Below are positions 15,887 to 27,513 of a stretch of 64,000 bases of DNA, piece by piece. The notes under the pieces were generated by a model, which ran no database searches, was not told where the DNA came from, and saw only the letters and a program-made list of their open reading frames with translations. Positions within the stretch are counted from its first letter, which is position 1. Every line of letters begins with the position of its first letter. Position numbers and translations under genes: made by a program. Origin of the DNA: Spirochaetales bacterium (lineage in GTDB: Bacteria; Spirochaetota; Spirochaetia; JABMQR01); NCBI GenBank assembly GCA_018399255.1, contig JAGYPA010000017.1:6130-70129 (forward strand), read 5' to 3'.

Positions 15887-18670
15887 ATGGATATACAATG
15901 GTATGCTGCAGCGCAGGAGCTGACAGCACAGATGACGCTGGAAGAGAAGGCAAGCCTCTGTTCGGGAAAAGATTTCTGGAACCTCAAAGGCATAGAACGG
16001 CTGAATTTGCCCGAAATCATGGTCACCGATGGACCGCACGGGCTCAGGAAGCAGTCTGAAGAAACCGACCATGAGGGTTTGCGTCCAAGTATCCCGAGCA
16101 CCTGCTTTCCCCGGCCGTCACCATGGCCTGCACGTGGGACCCCGGGCTCATCGAAACCTTGGACGCCCTGGCCGGGAGAGCAGGGAAGAGGGCGTATCAG
16201 TAGTCTTGGGACCCGGGGCAAACATCGCTGATCGCCCCTGTGCGGGCGAAATTTAGTATTTCTCTGAAGATCCCTTTCTTTACCGGAGAATTTGGCCTTG
16301 GCCCACATCCGCGGAGTCAGAGCGGAGGCATCGGCACATCCCTCAAGCATTTTGCCGTAAACAACCAGGAAACCAACCGGCTGTTTATTGATGCCGTGGT
16401 CGATGAACACCCTGCGGGAAATCTACCTGCCTGGATTCGAAAAGGCGGTGAAAGAAGGGTCAGCCTGACACAGTCATTGCGCCTACAATCGCCTGAACGG
16501 CACCTACTGCAGTGAAAACGAATACCCGCTCACCACGATTCCCGGGATCAGTGGGGCTTTACGGGGATGGTCGTTTCCGACTGGGGCCGTAAGCGATCGG
16601 GTAAAGGAATTCAGGCCGGGCTGGACCGGAAATGCCCGCGAGCCGCGGCGAAAACGACCGCAAGATTGTTGAGGCAGTCAAGTCCGGTGCCCTCGCCGAT
16701 GAACTCCCCGACCGGGCAGCCGTCCGGATAACAGCCCTGATTCTCAAGTCGGCAGACTTCCCTCAAGGCATCAGACCCCCAAGGCATCAGACTTCAAGTC
16801 GGCAGCTTCCCTCAAGGTATCAGACCCTCAAGTCAGCAGCCTTCCCGGAATGCCGATCACCCCCGCAGCAGGCAAAGCTGATGAGCAGGGGCAGGGCGGC
16901 CGCATACAATCGGGATCAGCACCATAACCTGGCTCGAACCATCGCCGCCGAAGGCATCGTACTTCTCAAAACCAGGACAACCTCCTGCCGATCACGTGCC
17001 CAGGGAGGCAAACCCCCGCAAACCTCGAAAACAGATAACCCCGGCAAACCCCCGCACCCCCCGCAAAAAGATCGCCGTATTGGCGATTTCGCCCGGAACC
17101 CACGCTATCAGGGAGCAGGAAGTTCGGCAAGTAACCCGACACGCCTTGACTCAGCCCTGGATGCAATAATCGGCAGCCGAACCCTTTGGGCATGCCAGAT
17201 TGATTTTGCCCGGGGCTATGACCCCGACAAAACCGAAAACCCCGATATTTCCGGACACACCGGATACCCCCTGAAAACCCCGAAGCTTCCGACACACCGG
17301 ATACCCCCGAAAACCCCGAAATTCAGCCGGAAAAATCGGACCTTGCAGCAGAAGCCTGCAGACTTGCCGCAGCCGCTGACCTGGTCCTGCTGTTTGCCGG
17401 ACTGCCCGATTCCTACGAATCCGAAGGATTTGACCGCACCCACATGCGCCTTCCTGAAGAACATAACCAGCTGATAAGAGCCGTGGCAAAGGCAAACCCG
17501 AAAACAGCCGTAATACTCAGCAACGGAGCCCCGGTAGAAATGCCCTGGGCAGATTCAGTCCCGGCAATCCTGGAAACCTACCTGGGAGGCCAGGCCGGCG
17601 GCAGCGCCGCGGCAGATGTGCTATTCGGCAAGGTAAATCCATCCGGACATCTCGCAGAGACATTCCCCCTAATCCTGGCTGATACCCCCTGCTGCGAAAA
17701 CTTCCCCGGAGGCAGGTATCGCGTACAGTACCGGGAAGGCCTGCATGTCGGCTACCGCTGGTATGCATCCGCCAACAAACCCGTGCGGTTTCCCTTCGGC
17801 CATGGCCTCAGCTATACCACCTTCACCTTCAGCAAAATGGAGCTCAGCAGGCAATCGATAACGCTGAAAACAGCAAACACGCATCAAGAAACGACCCCGC
17901 TGCTCGAAGTCTCGGTAACCGTGAAGAACACCGGCCAACGGAGCGGCAAAGAGGTAGTCCAGATCTATATACGGCCAAAAAAGAGCTCAGTCTATCGCCC
18001 GGAAATTGAGTTGAAAGGATTCGCCAAAATACTCGTAGAACCCGGGGAAAGCGCAATCGTCACCATCCCCTTGGATGCCAGAGCCTTCTCCTTCTACAAT
18101 ACCGCCATAGGCGACTGGGCGGTAGAGACTGGAACCTACGAGATTCTTGCTGGAAGCTCATCGGAATCCATTCATCTCACAGCTGCTGTACAGATACGGG
18201 TCGATCGGCCTGATACGCGGGAGAGGCTCCTCAGGGAAAATTCGGCTTTTCTGGCCCCGGACATTGATGGGATAAGCTACAGTGACACAGTCTTTGCGGC
18301 TCTGCTTGGGCGGGAAATTCCTTCGGATGTGCCGCTGGAGGATGTTGTCACTCTTAATACACCGCTACGGGATCTGAGAGGGACCGTCGTTGGAGATCAG
18401 CTGCATGCAGGTCTGCTGGCTGGACTGGCGAACCTGTCCACCCCGGAAACCGACGATGTTCAAATCGGAACGGCTTTATCAGCAGTTGATGAAGCCACGA
18501 AGCGTTTGCAAATCAGGCAGAACCGGCAGAAAATGATCAGAATGTTTGAACGAGCTATTGAGGGGATCCCACTTCGGAGCGCATTCATGTTCAGCAGAGG
18601 AGCAGTTTCATTTGCTCAGTTGGAAAAAATGATCAGGCTCCTGAATCAGGAAGGAGGCGCCGAAAGATAA
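15887..18670 (+). pseudogene. GH3 beta-glucosidase (BglX-like), degraded by frameshifts and internal repeat expansions
   Basis: N-terminus [41 protein letters not shown] (GH3). The middle (HFAVNNQETNR.., ..IVEAVKSGAL.., ..HHNLARTIAAEGIVLLK..) is spread over at least 4 frames. The C-terminal 408-aa ORF 17444-18670 carries the GH3 C-domain and FnIII-like domain (AADLVLLFAGLPDSYESEGFDRTHMRLPEEHNQLI..PVEMPW). Pro-rich repeat tracts lie at 16745-16860 and 17240-17335. Confidence 0.75.
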
Positions 18671-19122
18671 ACGGGGGGAATCCGGCTCGCGACAATCCGG
18701 CAGCTCTGCGTATACTTCCCAAACGGAGCGAGAGGAGGAGGGGGCATTTTGATGGTTCCATTCCCGATAAGCCAATTCACAGAATTGGCCGTGCTGGGAT
18801 CGCGGGCAAGTTTCTACTTGCCTTAACAACATACCCCCCCCCTGAGTACTCTGCGGCCCCCTTAGGGGCGGCAAAGGAGTCGAAGCCTCCTGGGTCCCAA
18901 GCATTCCCTTAGGGAATGCCGCTTGCCCATGGTAAGCCGCTTGCCCTGGAGTATGATACCCTGTCAGCAGTATACCCTGTGGAAAACGATTACTCAACTG
19001 AGGCGGAAGCTGTGCTGGCAGTGCAGTCGCAAAGCAGGCGAACAATCTTGTTTTCAATCGTTACGCAGTGCTATTTTCCCTCAAAACTGAAGTTGCTGGT
19101 GCGGAGCAAGGTTGGCAACAGG

Positions 19123-19178
19123 CAACTCACCTACAACTCACCTACAACTCACCTTCAACTCACCTTCAACTCACCTCG
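19123..19178. repeat. Tandem 10/11-nt repeats (caactcacct)x5
   Basis: Direct reading. Downstream of vapC. Confidence 0.8.
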
Positions 19179-19190
19179 GAAAGAAAACCC

Positions 19191-19598
19191 TCAGTTTACC
19201 AGGGTCCAATCTTCAATTCGCAGGTCCGGAATTCTGCAGTATTCTTTTGTGTTATGGGTTACAAGAATCCCATTTCCGGCGAGAGCGGTTGCTGCTATGA
19301 TAAGATCATTTGGTCCTATAACATTTCCCTCCAGTTCAAGAGAAGCGCGAAGATCAGCATATACTGCCGCAGCAGAGTCACCAAAGGGTACTATTTCCAT
19401 CGGCCGCAGGAAAGAGTAAATATTATGAAGGTTCTCCTCCCTTTTCATACTCTTCTCAGCTCCATACAGGAGTTCAGCTTTAACCATGGATGGAATTTTG
19501 ATTTGATCAGAATGGTGCTTTGCTAATTGAGGAGCTATAGAGGGGAATAGCCCTTTGAGAAAATAGATACAGATATTCGTATCAAGATACCAGTTCAC
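19191..19598 (-). CDS. vapC: Type II toxin VapC (PIN-domain ribonuclease)
   Basis: MNWYLDTNICIYFL... with the PIN acidic residues (D6, E, D, N near C-terminus). 135 aa. Overlaps the upstream antitoxin gene by 4 nt. Confidence 0.8.
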   Translation of the reverse strand: MNWYLDTNICIYFLKGLFPSIAPQLAKHHSDQIKIPSMVKAELLYGAEKSMKREENLHNIYSFLRPMEIVPFGDSAAAVYADLRASLELEGNVIGPNDLIIAATALAGNGILVTHNTKEYCRIPDLRIEDWTLVN

Positions 19599-19825
19599 AA
19601 TAATTCCCTTGGAAGGTCTGCAGGAAATTCAGGAGCATCAGGTACTGAAAATGAGTCATCATGTATGGATCCGAACAGCTGGAAAAATTTTTCAGGCCAC
19701 TCTGATTTCAGACTTTTCTTTATCACGCGGGAAACAAATTTTGAGATTGACAGGTTAGCTGAATTGGCGGCAGTTTCCACTTCCTTGAGAGTTTCAGCAT
19801 CAATGTAAAGGGATATTTGCGGCAT
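19595..19825 (-). CDS. Cognate antitoxin (VapB-like, putative ribbon-helix-helix)
   Basis: Small ORF translationally coupled to vapC (ATGA overlap). MPQISLYIDAETLKEVETAA... is typical of RHH/CopG-like antitoxins. Confidence 0.55.
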   Translation of the reverse strand: MPQISLYIDAETLKEVETAANSANLSISKFVSRVIKKSLKSEWPEKFFQLFGSIHDDSFSVPDAPEFPADLPRELL

Positions 19826-19910
19826 AATTTCCTCCCGCTTTAACAAGTATACCCCCAAGTATACTTGTTAGGCCTGTTTCTGTCAAGGGAGGGGAAGAAT
19901 GGGGGAAGAA

Positions 19911-19972
19911 TGGTGTCTGACACCGTATCCCGCAAAAAAACCCTGTTAAATTTCGGAATCCGGTAACAGTCG
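19911..19972. repeat. 55-60-nt double-hairpin repeat element, copy 1 of 3
   Basis: TGGTGTCTGACACCGTATCCCGCAAAAAAACCCTGTTAAATTTCGGAATCCGGT: perfect inverted repeat GGTGTC/GACACC followed by a stem ATCCCGC...GCGGAAT with loop AAAAAAACCTGTTAAATT. Confidence 0.8.
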
Positions 19973-19983
19973 TCGAAATGCAG

Positions 19984-21480
19984 CTACTGAGCCTTTATGT
20001 TCTTAACCGCGGTATCTAAGTCTTCTCGCTGTATTACCTGGAGAGGGATCGGCCTGCTGCTGTCGGAGCAGTTTATGATCAGACGATGATGAATACCCAG
20101 CCGTATTGAATAAAAATCCCCGCCCCCCCCAGTTTTCAACTTCTTTGTCTGCTTGAATACCTCCCTGTTGCGGGTACAGAAACCGGTAAAGGATTCGACA
20201 GCCTTTTTTTTGACTCCCGGTTCAAGCATCTCCAGTGATTTCTGAAACTTCTCAGGGAATACCGGAATGCAAAAAGGGAGAGTTCCCATCTCCGACTCTC
20301 GCAGGTCTTCCTCAACGTTTTCCCTCAGGTCCTGGTCATCACTATCCTGTATCTGCGACTCCCGAACCTGAGTTCTGAGCTCCCGGAAAGATTCCTGTTT
20401 TGTGCTGATAATCTGTTTCAGATGGGCTATCTTTTCCCTGCTCCTTTTGATCGCGTCATCATCAGCATGAATTCTCTGAGGGTGCTGCTCGCTAGACTCT
20501 ATTCTGTTCTGCAGCAGGGTTATTTTTTTCTTTTGCGCGGCACTCTCAGCATGTGCTTCCCGTAACTCCTTCTTCAGCTCCTGCATTTCTTCCCTGATAA
20601 ATTCATCCGGTTCTCGGTCATCGTCTTCATCGGCCAGGTCCTGATACAGATCCATAACGGCGAGAGCGGGATCTTCCCAGTAGTCAATGTCAAGATCTGA
20701 ATAGATTTCCATGATATCCTCGTGCATCGATTCAATATCAAAAAATCTCTCAGGAGAGGTTGCTGTCACAGCCCTGAACAGCAGCACGGCTATTCCAGGA
20801 TAGTGATGCCTGATGGTGTAAAACAGGTCGATAACTTCTTCAAGCTCCTCAATTCCCCGCACACATACCTGTTCGATATAATCCAACACTGCACCGGTAT
20901 TCTTTCGATAGAGGCTGCAGAGGAATTCTACCTTTTTGTAATCATTGCTTTCGGTATTGAAAAACAGTTTCAGAATCCGGGGAGCGAATTCAAACCGGTT
21001 GTCATAATTTATATGAAAGGCTGCATCCATTATCCAGTTATCAAAGGCATCATCCATTTCCGGCAGGGTGATTTTACGGTTTCGCAATCGCAAGGTTTCT
21101 TTTCTGCCCGGTAAAATTCCGTTGGTATCCTCATAAAACCTTCTCAGTTCAACAAGAAAATGGAGGGCGAGGAGAATATCTGAGTGAAGAGCAGTTTTAA
21201 AAGCTGCCGCTGCCTGATCTTTCGTCATGTTCTGCACATCAAGATCCTGCAGCTCGATGAGTGACATTTCCCGAATTTCCCTCACACTGAATGCTGCTAC
21301 ATTGTCTTTTTTCAGCTGATAGTTGTGCTCATGGGCAGTAACATAATGAGAACCCGGCAGAATCCCTCCAAGGCAGCAGTTTTTGTACTTTTTGCCGCTG
21401 CCGCAGGGGCAGGGATCGTTGCGTCCTACCTTTTTCTCTTTTCTTACCAGAGGTTCTTCAGGGAAATAATCTTCATTCAT
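19984..21480 (-). CDS. SEC-C-motif protein with helical/coiled-coil middle and a C-terminal tail resembling RelE/ParE toxins
   Basis: N-terminal [18 protein letters not shown] is the SecA-C-terminal metal-binding motif. The central region is charged and coiled-coil ([35 protein letters not shown]...). The C-terminus ..[42 protein letters not shown] follows the ySiRig-yRiiY...vl.V.hR pattern of RelE/ParE; this is inference. The start is at MNEDYF, because the upstream extension runs through a tandem repeat. Confidence 0.65.
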
Positions 21481-21554
21481 TGCCCTATCATATCGATCTG
21501 CTGCAAAAACAGCAATAATGTCGCTGGCAAAGATGTCCACAAGTAACAGCGAAC

Positions 21555-21594
21555 GGGCAGCAAGACTGCTGGAGGGCAGCAAGACTGCTGGAGG
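21555..21594. repeat. 2 tandem copies of the 19-bp unit GGGCAGCAAGACTGCTGGA
   Basis: Same unit as the 5-copy array at 22497-22590. Confidence 0.8.
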
Positions 21595-22496
21595 GTGTAA
21601 GTGCCCGAATTAATTTGACCCAAATACCCACATTGTTTTAAATCGAAAATCCTTCAGTAGTTGCTAAAATCCCGAGATATTATCAACTTTCTCTTTACCC
21701 GCATATTTTTACCGAACGACCATAGCGCGGGCATACACGTCCTGATGCAGCAGCACAAGAAAACGGCAGCCCTCAGGCTGCCTTAAGCGCCCGGCGGGCG
21801 CTCAGAAGCGGTGGAAATCCGATTTCTATGGGAAATCCGATTTCCTCCTTCTTTTTTGGGAAATCCTGTCATGACTGCAAAGGAGGGCAGGATTTCATGG
21901 GTTTGCAGGGTTGCATAGGAGGCTATGATTGAAAAAAGAAGGGCAATAAAAGCAGCTGATGGGAAGAGAAACCCGGTTAAGTCCGGCTCAATATACACAT
22001 GTCGCACGAGTAGCCGGAAGGAAGCAAATAAGGTTTTGCAGGGTAAGGAGCTGCTGAGAGGGTCACGAAAACCTTAAGCCTGGCTCAAAACACACGTGTC
22101 GCACGAGGAGGAGGGGGCGGAATTATGCAAGGGACAGGGGCAAATAAACTATATCTTCCCATGCCGGCTGAATGTTCCTTCAGTTTTGCAGCAAGGACAG
22201 ATCAACCCCCTGACAAAAGCCTTGCAGTCAGGGTAGCGTGATTCAAAGCAGTAATTTTCTTTTGTGGTTCTTAAGCAAATTATCGCTTTATTTGGAGACC
22301 CGGTCAAACCTGAGGCTCTTGCAAAAAGCAAGAGCGACGTTTTGGAGCTAATATTCAAAAATGTGAAGCATTTTGAAATTGGCTCAACTGTCAAAAGAAT
22401 TATGCCCGGTCTCTTTTCTCCTTTCTTAATACTACCAAGAATTTTAATACGGGTATTTCTCTCATTTCAAGTCCTTTTTTTGCGGGATTCTACAGA

Positions 22497-22590
22497 GGGC
22501 AGCAAGACTGCTGGAGGGCAGCAAGACTGCTGGAGGGCAGCAAGTCTGCTGGAGGGCAGTAAGACTGCCGGAGGGCAGCAAGACTGCAGC
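22497..22590. repeat. 5 tandem copies of the 19-bp unit GGGCAGCAAGACTGCTGGA, with no spacers
   Basis: Direct reading. The unit is itself semi-palindromic (GCAGCA/TGCTGG). Confidence 0.85.
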
Positions 22591-22627
22591 CAGGCTTTGC
22601 CAGCTCAGGTAAAGTCCGGTAAAATTA

Positions 22628-23026
22628 TCAGGCAAGCTCGGCGGTTTCCCGTTTGATCCTTTCGTAAATATTTCGCGCTTCGATAATAAAATCGTACGCA
22701 TCCTCATAAGAGGGCATTCCATCGGGCAGTAAGCCCAGGTCTGATGGATATCTTGCCTCTATATAGGTTTCATTGATCATCTTGAAAGTTTCCATATTAA
22801 TGTCTAGCTTCAGATAGTTCCTCACTGTACCATATAATTTGATCAAATTATGTATTTTAGGAATTTCATTTGTTTTCAAGATGATCAATGCCTTAAACGA
22901 TTTCTCAACGCATTGATGACAGTGGAAGGTAACATTGTTGGTCAAGTCAGGATCTGTTAGAATCAATTCTGCTGTTTTTAAATCTTTTTCTGCAAAACGC
23001 AGCCATTCATCAACGAGTTGTTTCAT
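22628..23026 (-). CDS. HEPN domain protein, toxin-like partner of the adjacent nucleotidyltransferase
   Basis: 132 aa, all-helical. Overlaps the upstream nucleotidyltransferase gene by 17 nt; this HEPN/MNT operon organisation is classic. Confidence 0.7.
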   Translation of the reverse strand: MKQLVDEWLRFAEKDLKTAELILTDPDLTNNVTFHCHQCVEKSFKALIILKTNEIPKIHNLIKLYGTVRNYLKLDINMETFKMINETYIEARYPSDLGLLPDGMPSYEDAYDFIIEARNIYERIKRETAELA

Positions 23027-23354
23027 AAAGCACTTTCCCTTTTTCTATTTCCCTGATGAATGGATGATTAACTTCACATGATTTTTCATATTCTGTTCTG
23101 GTATAAACCACCAGGTCAATGGGTACTTCATAGCTGATATCCAGTATCGCATTTCTCACTAATAATTTATTTTTTATTCTTTCCCGGTAGTTCTGAGGGA
23201 TTTCAAAGCTGTTCAGAATAACAGCCAGATCAATATCACTATCTTTATGTTCATTGCGCTCGGATAATGAGCCAAACAGAACTATTTTATATACGTCAAT
23301 GCCCTTCAGGGCATTAATAATTATTGGCAGGTAGTGGTTCAGTGACATTTCCAT
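23010..23354 (-). CDS. Minimal nucleotidyltransferase (MNT) domain protein
   Basis: LFGSLSERNEHKDSDIDLAVIL is the GS...DxD motif of Pol-beta-type nucleotidyltransferases. Confidence 0.8.
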   Translation of the reverse strand: MEMSLNHYLPIIINALKGIDVYKIVLFGSLSERNEHKDSDIDLAVILNSFEIPQNYRERIKNKLLVRNAILDISYEVPIDLVVYTRTEYEKSCEVNHPFIREIEKGKVLYETTR

Positions 23355-23443
23355 GAATCTATCTTACCGCAGATTATAATGCCTGTCATCAGCTATATCC
23401 CGGTGGAGAGCACAGGTGCACGGAAAAAGTGTGTCTGTGAGAT

Positions 23444-23502
23444 TGGTGTCTGACACCGTATCCCGCAAAAAAAACCTGTTAAATTGCGGGATCCGGTACC
23501 AG
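23444..23502. repeat. Double-hairpin repeat element, copy 2 of 3, followed by (acaccgaa)x4 at 23507-23540
   Basis: TGGTGTCTGACACCGTATCCCGCAAAAAAAACCTGTTAAATTGCGGGATCCGGT; the stem ATCCCGCAA/TTGCGGGAT is perfect. Confidence 0.8.
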
Positions 23503-23711
23503 ACATCCAAACACCGAAACACCGAAACACCGAAACACCCTTACCATTGTTAACGAAAGTTCTTTATGATACGGTAGGCTTGCGACAGGGTATTCGGAAG
23601 CCCCCATTGGAATGTGGTACGGCTGATTGTAGAGGTATAGCATTGCACTTGCCGTAAGACAGCTGGATTACCGTTTACCGTAACACTATCTGTTTGGAGA
23701 AAAGTTGAGAT

Positions 23712-24869
23712 ATGCAAGTAGGATGCACAAAGAAACTGTTGGATTATATGGGCTTGAAGGCTGAACCTGCTGACCCGGAAGCGGATCCCGTATTGAGCTG
23801 GAGTGCCAATAGCATTACGATCAACCACCGCCGGGCCATCATCGCCGGCAACGACTCATCACGATATGGATTCATATTGTACGGCATCAAGAGTAAGGAT
23901 AAAAAGAACTTGGGAAGGCTGCTTCTTGATGGAGTACGTGCATGCCTGGAAGCCGAGTGCATAGCCCCTGAACTCATACACAGGTATATGGACGATTGCG
24001 GGGCAAATGTCACCTTCACAAAGACACCCGGCAGCTCTGTAGTGGCAAGACTGAACAAACTATGTCTTAGTGCGTCATATATTGCAGAACTGCTGACCAC
24101 TGAACAACTGTTTCAGCAGCAGATATTACTGAGATTCAATAACGATTACATTACAAGTAAAAGCGAACCCCCAGGAGATTACAAAAACGGCCCTGCAAGC
24201 GAATCCCCAGGAGATCGCAAAAGGATTTATCACAACGTATACACGAAATTTGCCGATGACATTTCCCAGCGGTATGGTGCTCACCCGTATGGCTGCAATG
24301 CAGTTGAGCTCGAGGTGGAGCTCGAGTTGGAAAGCCTGTGCCGCAGGCGGATCATCGTCCCCTCCGGCTATACCTTCCGGCAGTTACATCTTGTTCTCCA
24401 AAACCTTTTCTGCTGGCAGCGCTGCCATCTGCATGAATTCTCGATAGAACGCTATCCGAACGGCCGGTTGAAGCACACGCTGGTCGGACATCCTCAGGAG
24501 TTTGATCTGGAAGGTGAGACCACACAACCGGATAGTTCAGTGCAGCTCTCCGAAATATTCCCACACTATGATCACATCATCTACACCTATGATTACGGGG
24601 ATGACTGGACCCATCACATCCGGTTTGTTGGCATCATCAACAATTATGATAAGAATCATGCGGTATGCCTCAGCGGAGAGGGCGATGCTCCCCCTGAGGA
24701 TGTGGGAGGAGCTCCCGGGTATGCCCGGCTGCTTCAGGTTCTGGCAGATCCTGAAGATCCTGACTATGACAACCTGAAGGCATGGTACGAATGGATGCAC
24801 TGCAGACCTTTCGATCTGGACAGGGTGAACAGCGCCTTACAGCACTGCGTGAGATCGTATGATTACTGA
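23712..24869 (+). CDS. Plasmid pRiA4b ORF-3-family protein (PRiA4_ORF3 domain) with N-terminal extension
   Basis: C-terminal block ..IYTYDYGDDWTHHIRFVGII..CLSGEGDAPPEDVGGAPGY.. matches the conserved Y-D-[FY]-G-D-D-W-x-H core of the pfam PRiA4_ORF3 family, an IS-associated passenger protein. Confidence 0.6.
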   Translation: MQVGCTKKLLDYMGLKAEPADPEADPVLSWSANSITINHRRAIIAGNDSSRYGFILYGIKSKDKKNLGRLLLDGVRACLEAECIAPELIHRYMDDCGANVTFTKTPGSSVVARLNKLCLSASYIAELLTTEQLFQQQILLRFNNDYITSKSEPPGDYKNGPASESPGDRKRIYHNVYTKFADDISQRYGAHPYGCNAVELEVELELESLCRRRIIVPSGYTFRQLHLVLQNLFCWQRCHLHEFSIERYPNGRLKHTLVGHPQEFDLEGETTQPDSSVQLSEIFPHYDHIIYTYDYGDDWTHHIRFVGIINNYDKNHAVCLSGEGDAPPEDVGGAPGYARLLQVLADPEDPDYDNLKAWYEWMHCRPFDLDRVNSALQHCVRSYDY

Positions 24870-27450: not shown

Positions 27451-27513
27451 GGTGTCTGACACCGTATTCCTCAAAAACACCGGGTTAAATTGCGGAATCC
27501 GGTGTCAAACACC
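27451..27513. repeat. Double-hairpin repeat element, copy 3 of 3 (the most diverged)
   Basis: GGTGTCTGACACCGTATTCCTCAAAAACACCGGGTTAAATTGCGGAATCCGGTGTCAAACACC. The long stem GACACCGTATTCC/GGAATCCGGTGTC is preserved by compensatory changes. Confidence 0.75.

Follow-up and report, generated by a model that had tools for sequence, protein, structure and literature searches.

A SEC-C zinc-knuckle protein with a predicted RelE/ParE-type C-terminal domain in a Spirochaetales genome belongs to a large uncharacterized family

The DNA analyzed here is a 64,000-nucleotide (nt) stretch from a Spirochaetales bacterium (assembly GCA_018399255.1, contig JAGYPA010000017.1, positions 6,130 to 70,129), which we call the window and by whose own numbering positions are given. 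Analysis of its open reading frames (ORFs) identified, on the minus strand, an intact gene that encodes a protein of 498 amino acids (aa) joining an N-terminal SEC-C motif, the metal-binding zinc knuckle of SecA, to a C-terminal domain whose assignment to the RelE/ParE superfamily is supported by sequence profiles and a predicted structure. Within a large uncharacterized family whose component domains are known to databases, the gene represents a divergent short form, and we are highly confident of both the domain composition and the family membership. RelE-type toxins are normally free proteins of ~90 residues that are restrained by a separately encoded antitoxin. The domain found here makes up the last ~97 aa of a much longer chain, and members of the family are single genes without a conserved partner. 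A sequence-only reading of the window, made by a model, had drawn attention to the gene and to a homopolymer within it that might switch a toxin-like tail on and off. The features of the gene are as follows.

19984..21480, minus strand: complete coding sequence, 498 aa plus TAG stop, ATG at 21480 (ORF and translation)
21370..21423, minus strand: SEC-C, SecA-type metal-binding knuckle, aa 20-37, CxCx8CC (Pfam PF02810)
20626..21345, minus strand: TPR-like helical repeat domain with one β-hairpin, aa ~46-285 (AlphaFold2, predicted local distance difference test (pLDDT) 90-98)
20332..20604, minus strand: antiparallel coiled-coil hairpin, aa 293-383, helices 293-329 and 334-383 (AlphaFold2; weak SMC/JetC and p85 iSH2 coil matches)
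20278..20331, minus strand: acidic linker, aa 384-401, with a short strand at aa 390-392 in the full-length and domain-only models
19987..20277, minus strand: RelE/ParE-superfamily domain, aa ~402-498, ~97 aa (profiles, Pfam PF24732, model, Foldseek)
20026..20103, minus strand: conserved basic residues R460 (20101-20103), R466 (20083-20085), and R485 (20026-20028) (family alignment)
20123..20130, minus strand: G8 homopolymer (C8 on the plus strand), gene nt 1351-1358, part of Gly451-454 (sequence)
20204..20211, minus strand: A8 homopolymer (T8 on the plus strand), Lys-Lys-Lys, of the same length in all five DNA sequences compared

Results

Domain architecture of the protein

The ORF delimited by the sequence-only reading, 19984-21480, proved to be the right one, but its product of 499 aa is in fact 498 aa and a stop codon. 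We took the ATG at 21480 as the start, since the alternative TTG at 21582, which would open a 532-aa ORF, adds an extension that enters a 19-nt tandem repeat, and since the 47%-identical homologs P0002 and P0003 begin at the equivalent of ATG 21480. The 520-aa JGI gene models were rejected as well; their additional N-terminal part runs over the 19-nt repeats and has no counterpart in P0002 and P0003. An identical 498-aa product, from an NCBI contig of 71 kb, is already present in the public protein collection as P0266. When the window gene was compared with the intact alleles at loci L001 and L090, the ratio of nonsynonymous to synonymous substitution rates (dN/dS), which here derives from small counts, was 0.18 for the whole gene and 0.17 for the RelE-like domain. 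The intact alleles are under purifying selection, and the gene is functional and selectively maintained.

The SEC-C motif (aa 24-36) has the CxCx8C[CH] pattern and matches Pfam PF02810 with an E-value of 1.3e-9 and 38.1 bits, above the curated cut-off of 20.4, which bears out the SecA-type C4 zinc motif that had been noticed at the start of the protein. Searched against the PDB, a profile of the whole family returned the SecA C-terminal tail or zinc domain (3iqy_A, 1tf2_A, 1ozb_I, and 1sx0_A) and the C-terminal part of YchJ (9l6b_C) with E-values of 6e-14 to 1e-11. The knuckle is almost identical to the SecA C-terminal metal-binding domain, which also occurs in YecA, YchJ, and some methionine aminopeptidases, and its matches are the tail of SecA, the SecA peptide bound to SecB in 1ozb, and the YchJ C-terminus of 9l6b. 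It differs from these carriers in its position, being N-terminal in the window protein and C-terminal in theirs, and in the lack of a UPF0149 (YecA) or UPF0225 (YchJ) domain. The metal-binding domain of SecA binds SecB and ribosomes, and YecA, YchJ, and the methionine aminopeptidases that carry a SecA-type knuckle have been proposed to be ribosome-associated (bioRxiv 10.1101/613315). No other activity of the knuckle is documented. Given the near-identity of the motif to that of SecA, the knuckle of the window protein would be expected to bind metal, SecB, and ribosomes.

In the Pfam search the window protein had no UPF0149 domain and so does not qualify as a YecA family protein. In NCBIfam it matches unnamed hypothetical-protein (PRK) models over aa 9-37 only, with 28-44 bits against cut-offs of 140-158. 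Because these matches are confined to the motif and no UPF0149 or UPF0225 domain is present, the YecA label given by JGI to the homolog P0002 follows from the SEC-C motif alone.

At the other end of the chain, profiles of the family matched solved RelE toxins over the whole domain: RelE3 of M. jannaschii (3bpq_B, E 4.4e-5), RelE of T. thermophilus (2khe_A, E 2.7e-4), and Rv2866 of M. tuberculosis (3g5o_B, E 3.2e-4). A comparison of this kind had been recommended as a check by the sequence-only reading, and its outcome (E-values of 4e-5 to 3e-4) supports the RelE/ParE-like C-terminus which that reading had recognized by pattern, although the domain extends over ~97 aa (402-498) and not ~70. Pfam PF24732 (ParE_like) was matched by all 31 aligned relatives, with a best E-value of 1.2e-8 (7 of 10 and 34 of 49 in earlier samples); among the same 31, PF05016 was matched by five, YoeB_toxin by three, TIGR02116 (Txe/YoeB) by five, and RelE_StbE by one.

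The domain modeled alone reached a pLDDT of 92.8 and a predicted template modeling score (pTM) of 0.86, and it shows the RelE fold, with N-terminal helices packed on an antiparallel sheet and a C-terminal helix. When this model was compared with the PDB by Foldseek, the five top matches were 1wmi_A, 7v6w_F, 2khe, 7v6w_E, and 7v5y_E, with probabilities of 0.99-1.00 and target template modeling (TM) scores of 0.64-0.70. Named by toxin, the best matches are archaeal RelE (1wmi_A), S. aureus YoeB (7v6w), RelE (2khe), HigB (5ycl), and YafQ (4q2u), with target TM scores of 0.60-0.70, and every match through rank 16 is a chain of a type II toxin–antitoxin (TA) toxin, GraT and the S. pneumoniae module 6af3/6af4 included. 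No ParE is listed before rank 49, where the probability is 0.04.

The catalytic and RNA-binding residues of RelE are K52, K54, R61, R81, and Y87, of which the two arginines (R61 and R81) grip the scissile phosphate. HMMER and hhalign placed the window protein in register with E. coli RelE such that S458 corresponds to K52, R460 to K54, R466 to R61, and R485 to R81; R460, R466, and R485 also align with Arg or Lys residues of Rv2866 and M. jannaschii RelE3. All 49 relatives share R466 and R485, and 48 of them have Arg or Lys at position 460. The domain thus has the fold of the RelE-family mRNA interferases (RelE, archaeal RelE, YoeB, HigB, and YafQ; PF05016, PF06769, and the related PF24732), is homologous to them at the level of profiles, and carries basic residues in the K54/R61/R81 register. 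It differs from them in forming the last ~97 aa of a chain of 498 aa that is accompanied by no antitoxin gene, in having no equivalent of Tyr87, and in a lineage-specific Gly-rich loop; any interferase activity is a prediction.

Between these two ends, an AlphaFold2 model of the full-length protein built from a 49-sequence alignment (mean pLDDT 89, pTM 0.62) places, in order, the zinc-knuckle region, helical repeats, an antiparallel helix hairpin, the acidic linker, and the compact C-terminal α/β domain. The helical repeat domain, which includes a nearly invariant YPG...R236 motif, has weak similarity to TPR, PPR, SNAP, and EMC2-like helical repeats; no Pfam family matched it. Profile matches to designed armadillo and PPR repeat structures in the PDB were discarded as multi-repeat artefacts, no single stretch of which passes. 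The two helices of the hairpin (293-329 and 334-383), together with the weak matches to the SMC/JetC coil, account for the long charged coiled coil that had been noticed in the sequence. The acidic motif ahead of the RelE-like domain is conserved in the family alignment (A6).

A large family of single genes

A profile search of 1.84 billion representative sequences yielded 1080 proteins with E ≤ 1e-3, of which 592 reach E ≤ 1e-10. The latter we count as a family of ~590 clusters, a cluster being defined at 50% identity. In nearly all of the 592, the RelE-like domain lies at the extreme C-terminus of a protein of 490-750 aa. SEC-C was present in 44 of 49 sampled members, and because the position at which the motif starts ranges from residue 14 to residue 285, the extension that precedes it must be variable; from SEC-C onward the architecture can be aligned throughout the family, P0009 and P0265 being examples that match both PF02810 and PF24732. 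Homology over its full length, as to P0004 (E 1e-26), makes the window protein a member of this family. Together with P0002, P0003, P0180, P0255, and P0264 it is a short form; typical members have ~700 aa and an N-terminal domain of ~200 aa that it lacks. At one locus (L089, 792-2920) a long-form member is divided between two neighboring ORFs, one of 556 aa with SEC-C and one of 139 aa with ParE_like, which reflects either a frameshift or a natural split that parts the RelE-like domain from its putative regulator.

Across the seven genomic contexts examined, we found no shared neighbor and no small partner or antitoxin gene, and thus not the adjacency that characterizes type II TA systems. Depending on the relative, the neighbors are metabolic genes; a DUF6880 gene; TPR, peptidyl-prolyl isomerase, and outer-membrane protein genes; ExbBD-TonB; a DUF433/DUF5615 pair adjoining cas genes (L085); or, in the close relatives L001 and L090 only, vapBC.

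Other searches added few relatives. A scan of genome contigs yielded one full-length relative, L004 (Kofleriaceae); since the search pattern was the SEC-C motif, the scan otherwise returned SecA itself (L007) and unrelated SEC-C proteins. A homolog search with a SEC-C-trimmed alignment gave three proteins only, probably owing to low-complexity coiled-coil words that filled the candidate list, and one with the C-terminal profile gave short fragments only. Metagenome contigs gave nothing, either in a protein scan or in a scan with a DNA pattern flanking the guanine tract, and the scan of viral contigs found no relative. When the window protein was compared by tblastn with 72,556 plasmids, similarity was confined to the SEC-C motif. 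No account of the architecture turned up in searches of the literature on SEC-C with ParE or RelE, on PF24732, and on the SecA metal-binding domain with RelE.

Possible functions of the RelE-type domain

Because no antitoxin gene accompanies the family, control of a toxin-like domain would have to lie within the polypeptide. The interpretation that we tentatively prefer, at rather less than even confidence, is that the protein is a ribosome- or SecB-directed effector of RelE type that is regulated in cis. The SEC-C knuckle would dock the protein on ribosomes or on SecB, and the C-terminal domain would target the ribosome during translation, or the mRNA bound to it. The helical domain, together with the coiled coil and the acidic linker, may mask the RelE-like domain or hold it in position as long as no signal is received, and the strand that the linker is predicted to add to this domain in both models could be part of such control.

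Several observations weigh against this interpretation. On its own, the window protein matches PF24732 with E-values of 0.032-0.044 and 14.2-14.7 bits, under the cut-off of 24.4, which is why the precomputed annotation of its clade lists SEC-C only; PF05016 did not match it either. The Foldseek E-values are modest for this small domain, at 0.015-0.03, and they range up to 0.4 among the RelE, YoeB, HigB, and YafQ matches. No equivalent of Tyr87, the general acid/base of RelE, was found in the window protein or in the 49 aligned relatives, and at position 458, in register with K52, the window protein has Ser, as do 20 of the 49, while 27 have Arg. A basic, putatively RNA-binding face thus appears to be kept, while the missing Tyr87 equivalent and the Ser at the K52 register leave catalytic competence uncertain. 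The role proposed for the acidic linker as a cis-inhibitory segment is conjecture. Finally, many members of the family sit among housekeeping genes, a setting that suits a non-toxic role as well as a conflict system.

The main rival is accordingly a domesticated, non-toxic RelE fold, an explanation that we regard as somewhat unlikely. The protein would then be a housekeeping factor, perhaps a ribosome or SecB adaptor or a chaperone-like protein comparable with YecA and YchJ, in which the fold binds ribosomes, RNA, or protein without nuclease activity. The absence of an antitoxin partner from every context examined, the position of several members among metabolic, TonB, or outer-membrane genes, the loss of the Tyr87 equivalent with Ser at the K52 position, and the size of a family under purifying selection are all consistent with it. 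It does not readily account for the invariance in 49 of 49 relatives of the arginines that in RelE grip the phosphate, for the location of the gene among TA and CRISPR genes in the window and at L085, or for the deleted and frameshifted remnants in related strains, which are typical of dispensable accessory genes.

A second alternative, which we consider improbable, is that the protein is a single-protein abortive-infection or defense sensor whose helical domain senses a phage product and thereby frees the RelE-like nuclease on the ribosome. Such a scheme has a conceptual precedent in CapRel, a fused single-chain toxin–antitoxin defense protein whose toxin fold is that of a RelA/SpoT-like pyrophosphokinase. 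By analogy, the window family would likewise combine a toxin and a regulatory or sensor region in one chain without a separate antitoxin gene; its toxin fold is RelE-like rather than RelA/SpoT-like, and its autoinhibition, trigger, and role in defense are conjectural. A closer resemblance in the N-terminal motif is offered by Rugutis, a lactococcal protein of 359 aa that carries SEC-C at its N-terminus and by itself suffices for phage resistance (PMC11381338). Compared by description, Rugutis is also a single protein in which an N-terminal SEC-C is followed by a domain of unknown fold, but it is shorter, at 359 aa, and no RelE-like C-terminus has been reported for it (PMC11381338), so that the likeness is one of motif and description.

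In favor of a defense sensor are the union in one gene of an effector-like C-terminus with a putative sensor domain of repeat type, the place of this gene beside vapBC and a HEPN-MNT pair in a small island, and the variation in presence, absence, and decay between related strains. Against it, contexts rich in TA or defense genes were only two of the seven, and the plasmid and viral collections held no similarity beyond the motif. Of the matches that PADLOC returned, PDC-S12 and E2-like extend over the SEC-C motif alone and JetC and LmuB over unspecific coiled coil; they were rejected as evidence of a known defense system, with the limit that the PADLOC-DB of 2023 predates Rugutis. In its boldest version, to which we attach the same low probability, the family would be a new class of self-contained, single-chain conflict or stress effector, in which the knuckle parks a RelE-type nuclease on ribosomes or SecB-bound nascent chains, and in which the TPR-like domain, the coiled coil, and the acidic linker serve as a built-in antitoxin and sensor that would unleash cleavage of mRNA upon phage infection, secretion stress, or a similar trigger.

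That the C-terminal domain is a ParE-type poison of DNA gyrase and not directed at the ribosome is scarcely credible, for although PF24732 is named ParE-like and PF05016 is matched by 5 of 31 relatives, the structural matches are to RelE, YoeB, HigB, and YafQ with ParE far down the list, the PDB profile matches are to RelE-type toxins only, the arginines in the RelE register are invariant, and the fused SEC-C points to the ribosome or SecB rather than to gyrase.

The guanine tract and its alleles

The sequence-only reading had described an 8-nt C run at 20123-20130 that encodes a GGGG linker just before the RelE-like segment. The run is there, as G8 on the coding strand, and with the bases around it (ACT GGG GGG GGC GGG GAT, or T-G-G-G-G-D) it encodes the four glycines at aa 451-454. 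These do not form a linker ahead of the domain; they lie inside it, in a surface loop between the helical half and strand β2. Slippage by one base would, in principle, remove the toxin-like tail as had been suggested, a loss of one base giving a product of 466 aa and a gain of one base a product of 492 aa, both without the β-sheet and the three conserved arginines. Phase variation, which had been put forward on these grounds, is not supported: the G8 is private to the window allele, and nothing indicates that the organism makes use of such slippage. The tract reads as follows in the DNA sequences compared.

Window: G8-C-G4; in frame
L001 and L090 (96% aa identity): G6-T-G-C-G4; with a Cys codon, in frame
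L002 (47% identity): in frame, six of the bases missing
L086: G5-T-G-C-G4; -1 frameshift
L087: 3' deletion, the sequence departing from the others immediately behind AAA

At the protein level, all seven close alleles in the 90% cluster have Gly-Gly-Cys-Gly (GGCG) at this site, and the two-residue insertion is absent from all 48 other aligned relatives. Since the close alleles have G6-T-G, the G8 is explained by one T-to-G substitution, from Cys to Gly, in a lineage-specific loop. Full-length alleles are all in frame at the tract. In the 64-kb window, two runs of at least eight G or C are seen, where 1.0 is expected if bases are independent and identically distributed and 2.0 under a first-order Markov model, so that the G8 is no more than chance would give. 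The only other such run in the window is a C9 homopolymer at 18834-18842, between a GH3 gene and vapC.

Two metagenome contigs carry damaged copies of the gene. On L086 (1-1793), an MNT-HEPN pair is directly followed by a copy that lacks ~236 5' codons and is frameshifted at the G run; the junction of the deletion lies in the 19-nt repeat array, which is joined to the interior of the SEC-C gene. On L087 (1-904), ~252 5' codons are lost, a frameshift is present at an A7 run, and a 3' deletion begins exactly at the G run. As both had already lost the first ~236-252 codons, they are decaying remnants and not switched-off alleles. Homopolymers are the expected first sites of frameshift in a decaying gene, and the changes in L086 and L087 could also be assembly errors at low coverage.

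We therefore regard the G8 as very probably the incidental result of one point mutation rather than a programmed switch. That slipped-strand mispairing at the tract turns the RelE-like domain on and off appears very unlikely: the in-frame G8 is long enough to slip, for which about eight or more G or C are needed, one-base slips in either direction would remove the sheet and the arginines, the run of L086 is one base shorter than that of the close alleles (G5 against G6) and is frameshifted, and the 3' deletion of L087 begins exactly at the run; set against this, the tract is not conserved among relatives and intact alleles show no on/off polymorphism of length, runs of this kind are not over-represented, the two frameshifted or truncated copies had been inactivated by their 5' deletions, and the A8 of the same gene never varies.

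Neighboring genes and repeats

The gene lies in an accessory cluster that consists of vapBC, the SEC-C gene, repeats, a HEPN-MNT pair, and a PRiA4_ORF3/DUF6933 gene, and that is flanked by glycoside-hydrolase and sugar-nucleotide genes. The features nearest to it are as follows.

19191..19825, minus strand: vapB (19595-19825, 76 aa, with the start taken from the homologous locus L001) and vapC (19191-19598, PIN domain, E 1.4e-17) (ORFs, Pfam)
19839..19886, minus strand: vapB promoter-like site TTGACA-17-TATACT, 11 of 12 matches, σ70-like, overlapping a palindrome with a 14-bp stem (pattern)
19907..19978, no strand: 72-nt repeated element with two palindromes, between the stop codon of the gene and the vapB promoter (repeat analysis)
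21536..21595, no strand: 19-nt tandem repeat GGGCAGCAAGACTGCTGGA, ~2.5 copies, 55-115 nt upstream of the start codon (repeat analysis)
21765..21782, minus strand: terminator-like hairpin upstream of the gene (pattern match only)

As the sequence-only reading had it, the gene and vapBC share a strand and the gene comes immediately upstream, with the first copy of that reading's "hairpin element" between them; this is the 72-nt element at 19907-19978. The element combines a palindrome, GGTGTC-T-GACACC, with a ATCCCGCAA...TTGCGGGAT stem, and further copies are found at 23440-23511 and, in degenerate form, around 27451-27478. It occupies the same place in L001. No Rfam RNA family was matched in 18600-24000, the element included. 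The palindrome at the vapB promoter-like site, with the stem TTAACAAGTATAC...GTATACTTGTTA, resembles a typical autoregulated TA operator.

Because vapBC has its own promoter-like site and palindrome, and because distant homologs of the SEC-C gene have no adjacent vapBC, the pair is probably an independent neighboring transcription unit that does not form an operon with the gene. The gene itself is most likely its own transcription unit, given the vapB promoter-like site, the repeated element between the genes, and the terminator-like hairpin upstream, which would insulate it from upstream transcription. A three-part module, in which the SEC-C/RelE-like protein is functionally coupled to the VapB antitoxin or the VapC toxin, is highly improbable: the three genes share a strand, lie about 125-160 nt apart, and keep their order in the close relatives L001 and L090, but vapB has the 11-of-12 promoter-like site and an operator-like palindrome, the repeated element parts the genes, and no vapBC is found beside the 47%-identical homologs or beside any long-form member.

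The 19-nt repeat unit GGGCAGCAAGACTGCTGGA contains a small CAGCA...TGCTG palindrome and has seven matches where 0.01 is expected; a second array of five copies, at 22497-22594, lies directly downstream of the HEPN gene. HEPN (22628-23026) and the MNT nucleotidyltransferase (23010-23354) stand between the SEC-C and PRiA4_ORF3/DUF6933 genes. The pair is absent from the otherwise collinear L090, so that it was recently inserted or lost and the cluster is fluid.

Further repeats were observed in the same region. An 11-nt tandem repeat, CAACTCACCTA, of ~5 copies (19123-19177) lies directly downstream of the vapC stop codon, and an 8-nt tandem repeat, ACACCGAA, of 3-4 copies (23503-23534) adjoins the second copy of the 72-nt element. 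Non-coding DNA between the SEC-C and HEPN genes contains a 37-nt direct repeat (21977-22013 and 22074-22110; 84% identity, 97 nt apart). Beyond vapC, in the region 16632-18670, the ORF at 17444-18670 starts in the middle of Glyco_hydro_3_C (profile position 94 of 200) and overlaps the preceding ORF at 16632-17474, which suggests that the GH3 β-glucosidase gene is frameshifted or split, or that the sequence contains an error.

Implications

The family unites a RelE fold that carries phosphate-gripping arginines with a small module known to bind SecB and ribosomes, and at ~590 clusters it is apparently unstudied. If the domain is active, the family would offer a new form of control over a ribosome-dependent nuclease, by autoinhibition in cis and by tethering to the translation and export machinery, and it would be an additional candidate for a single-gene stress or defense effector. 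If the domain is inactive, a toxin fold would have been domesticated as a ribosome-binding module. Should the interpretation of the protein as a single-chain effector prove true, the family would embody a toxin–antitoxin logic that works without an antitoxin gene and is coupled to the protein-export machinery.

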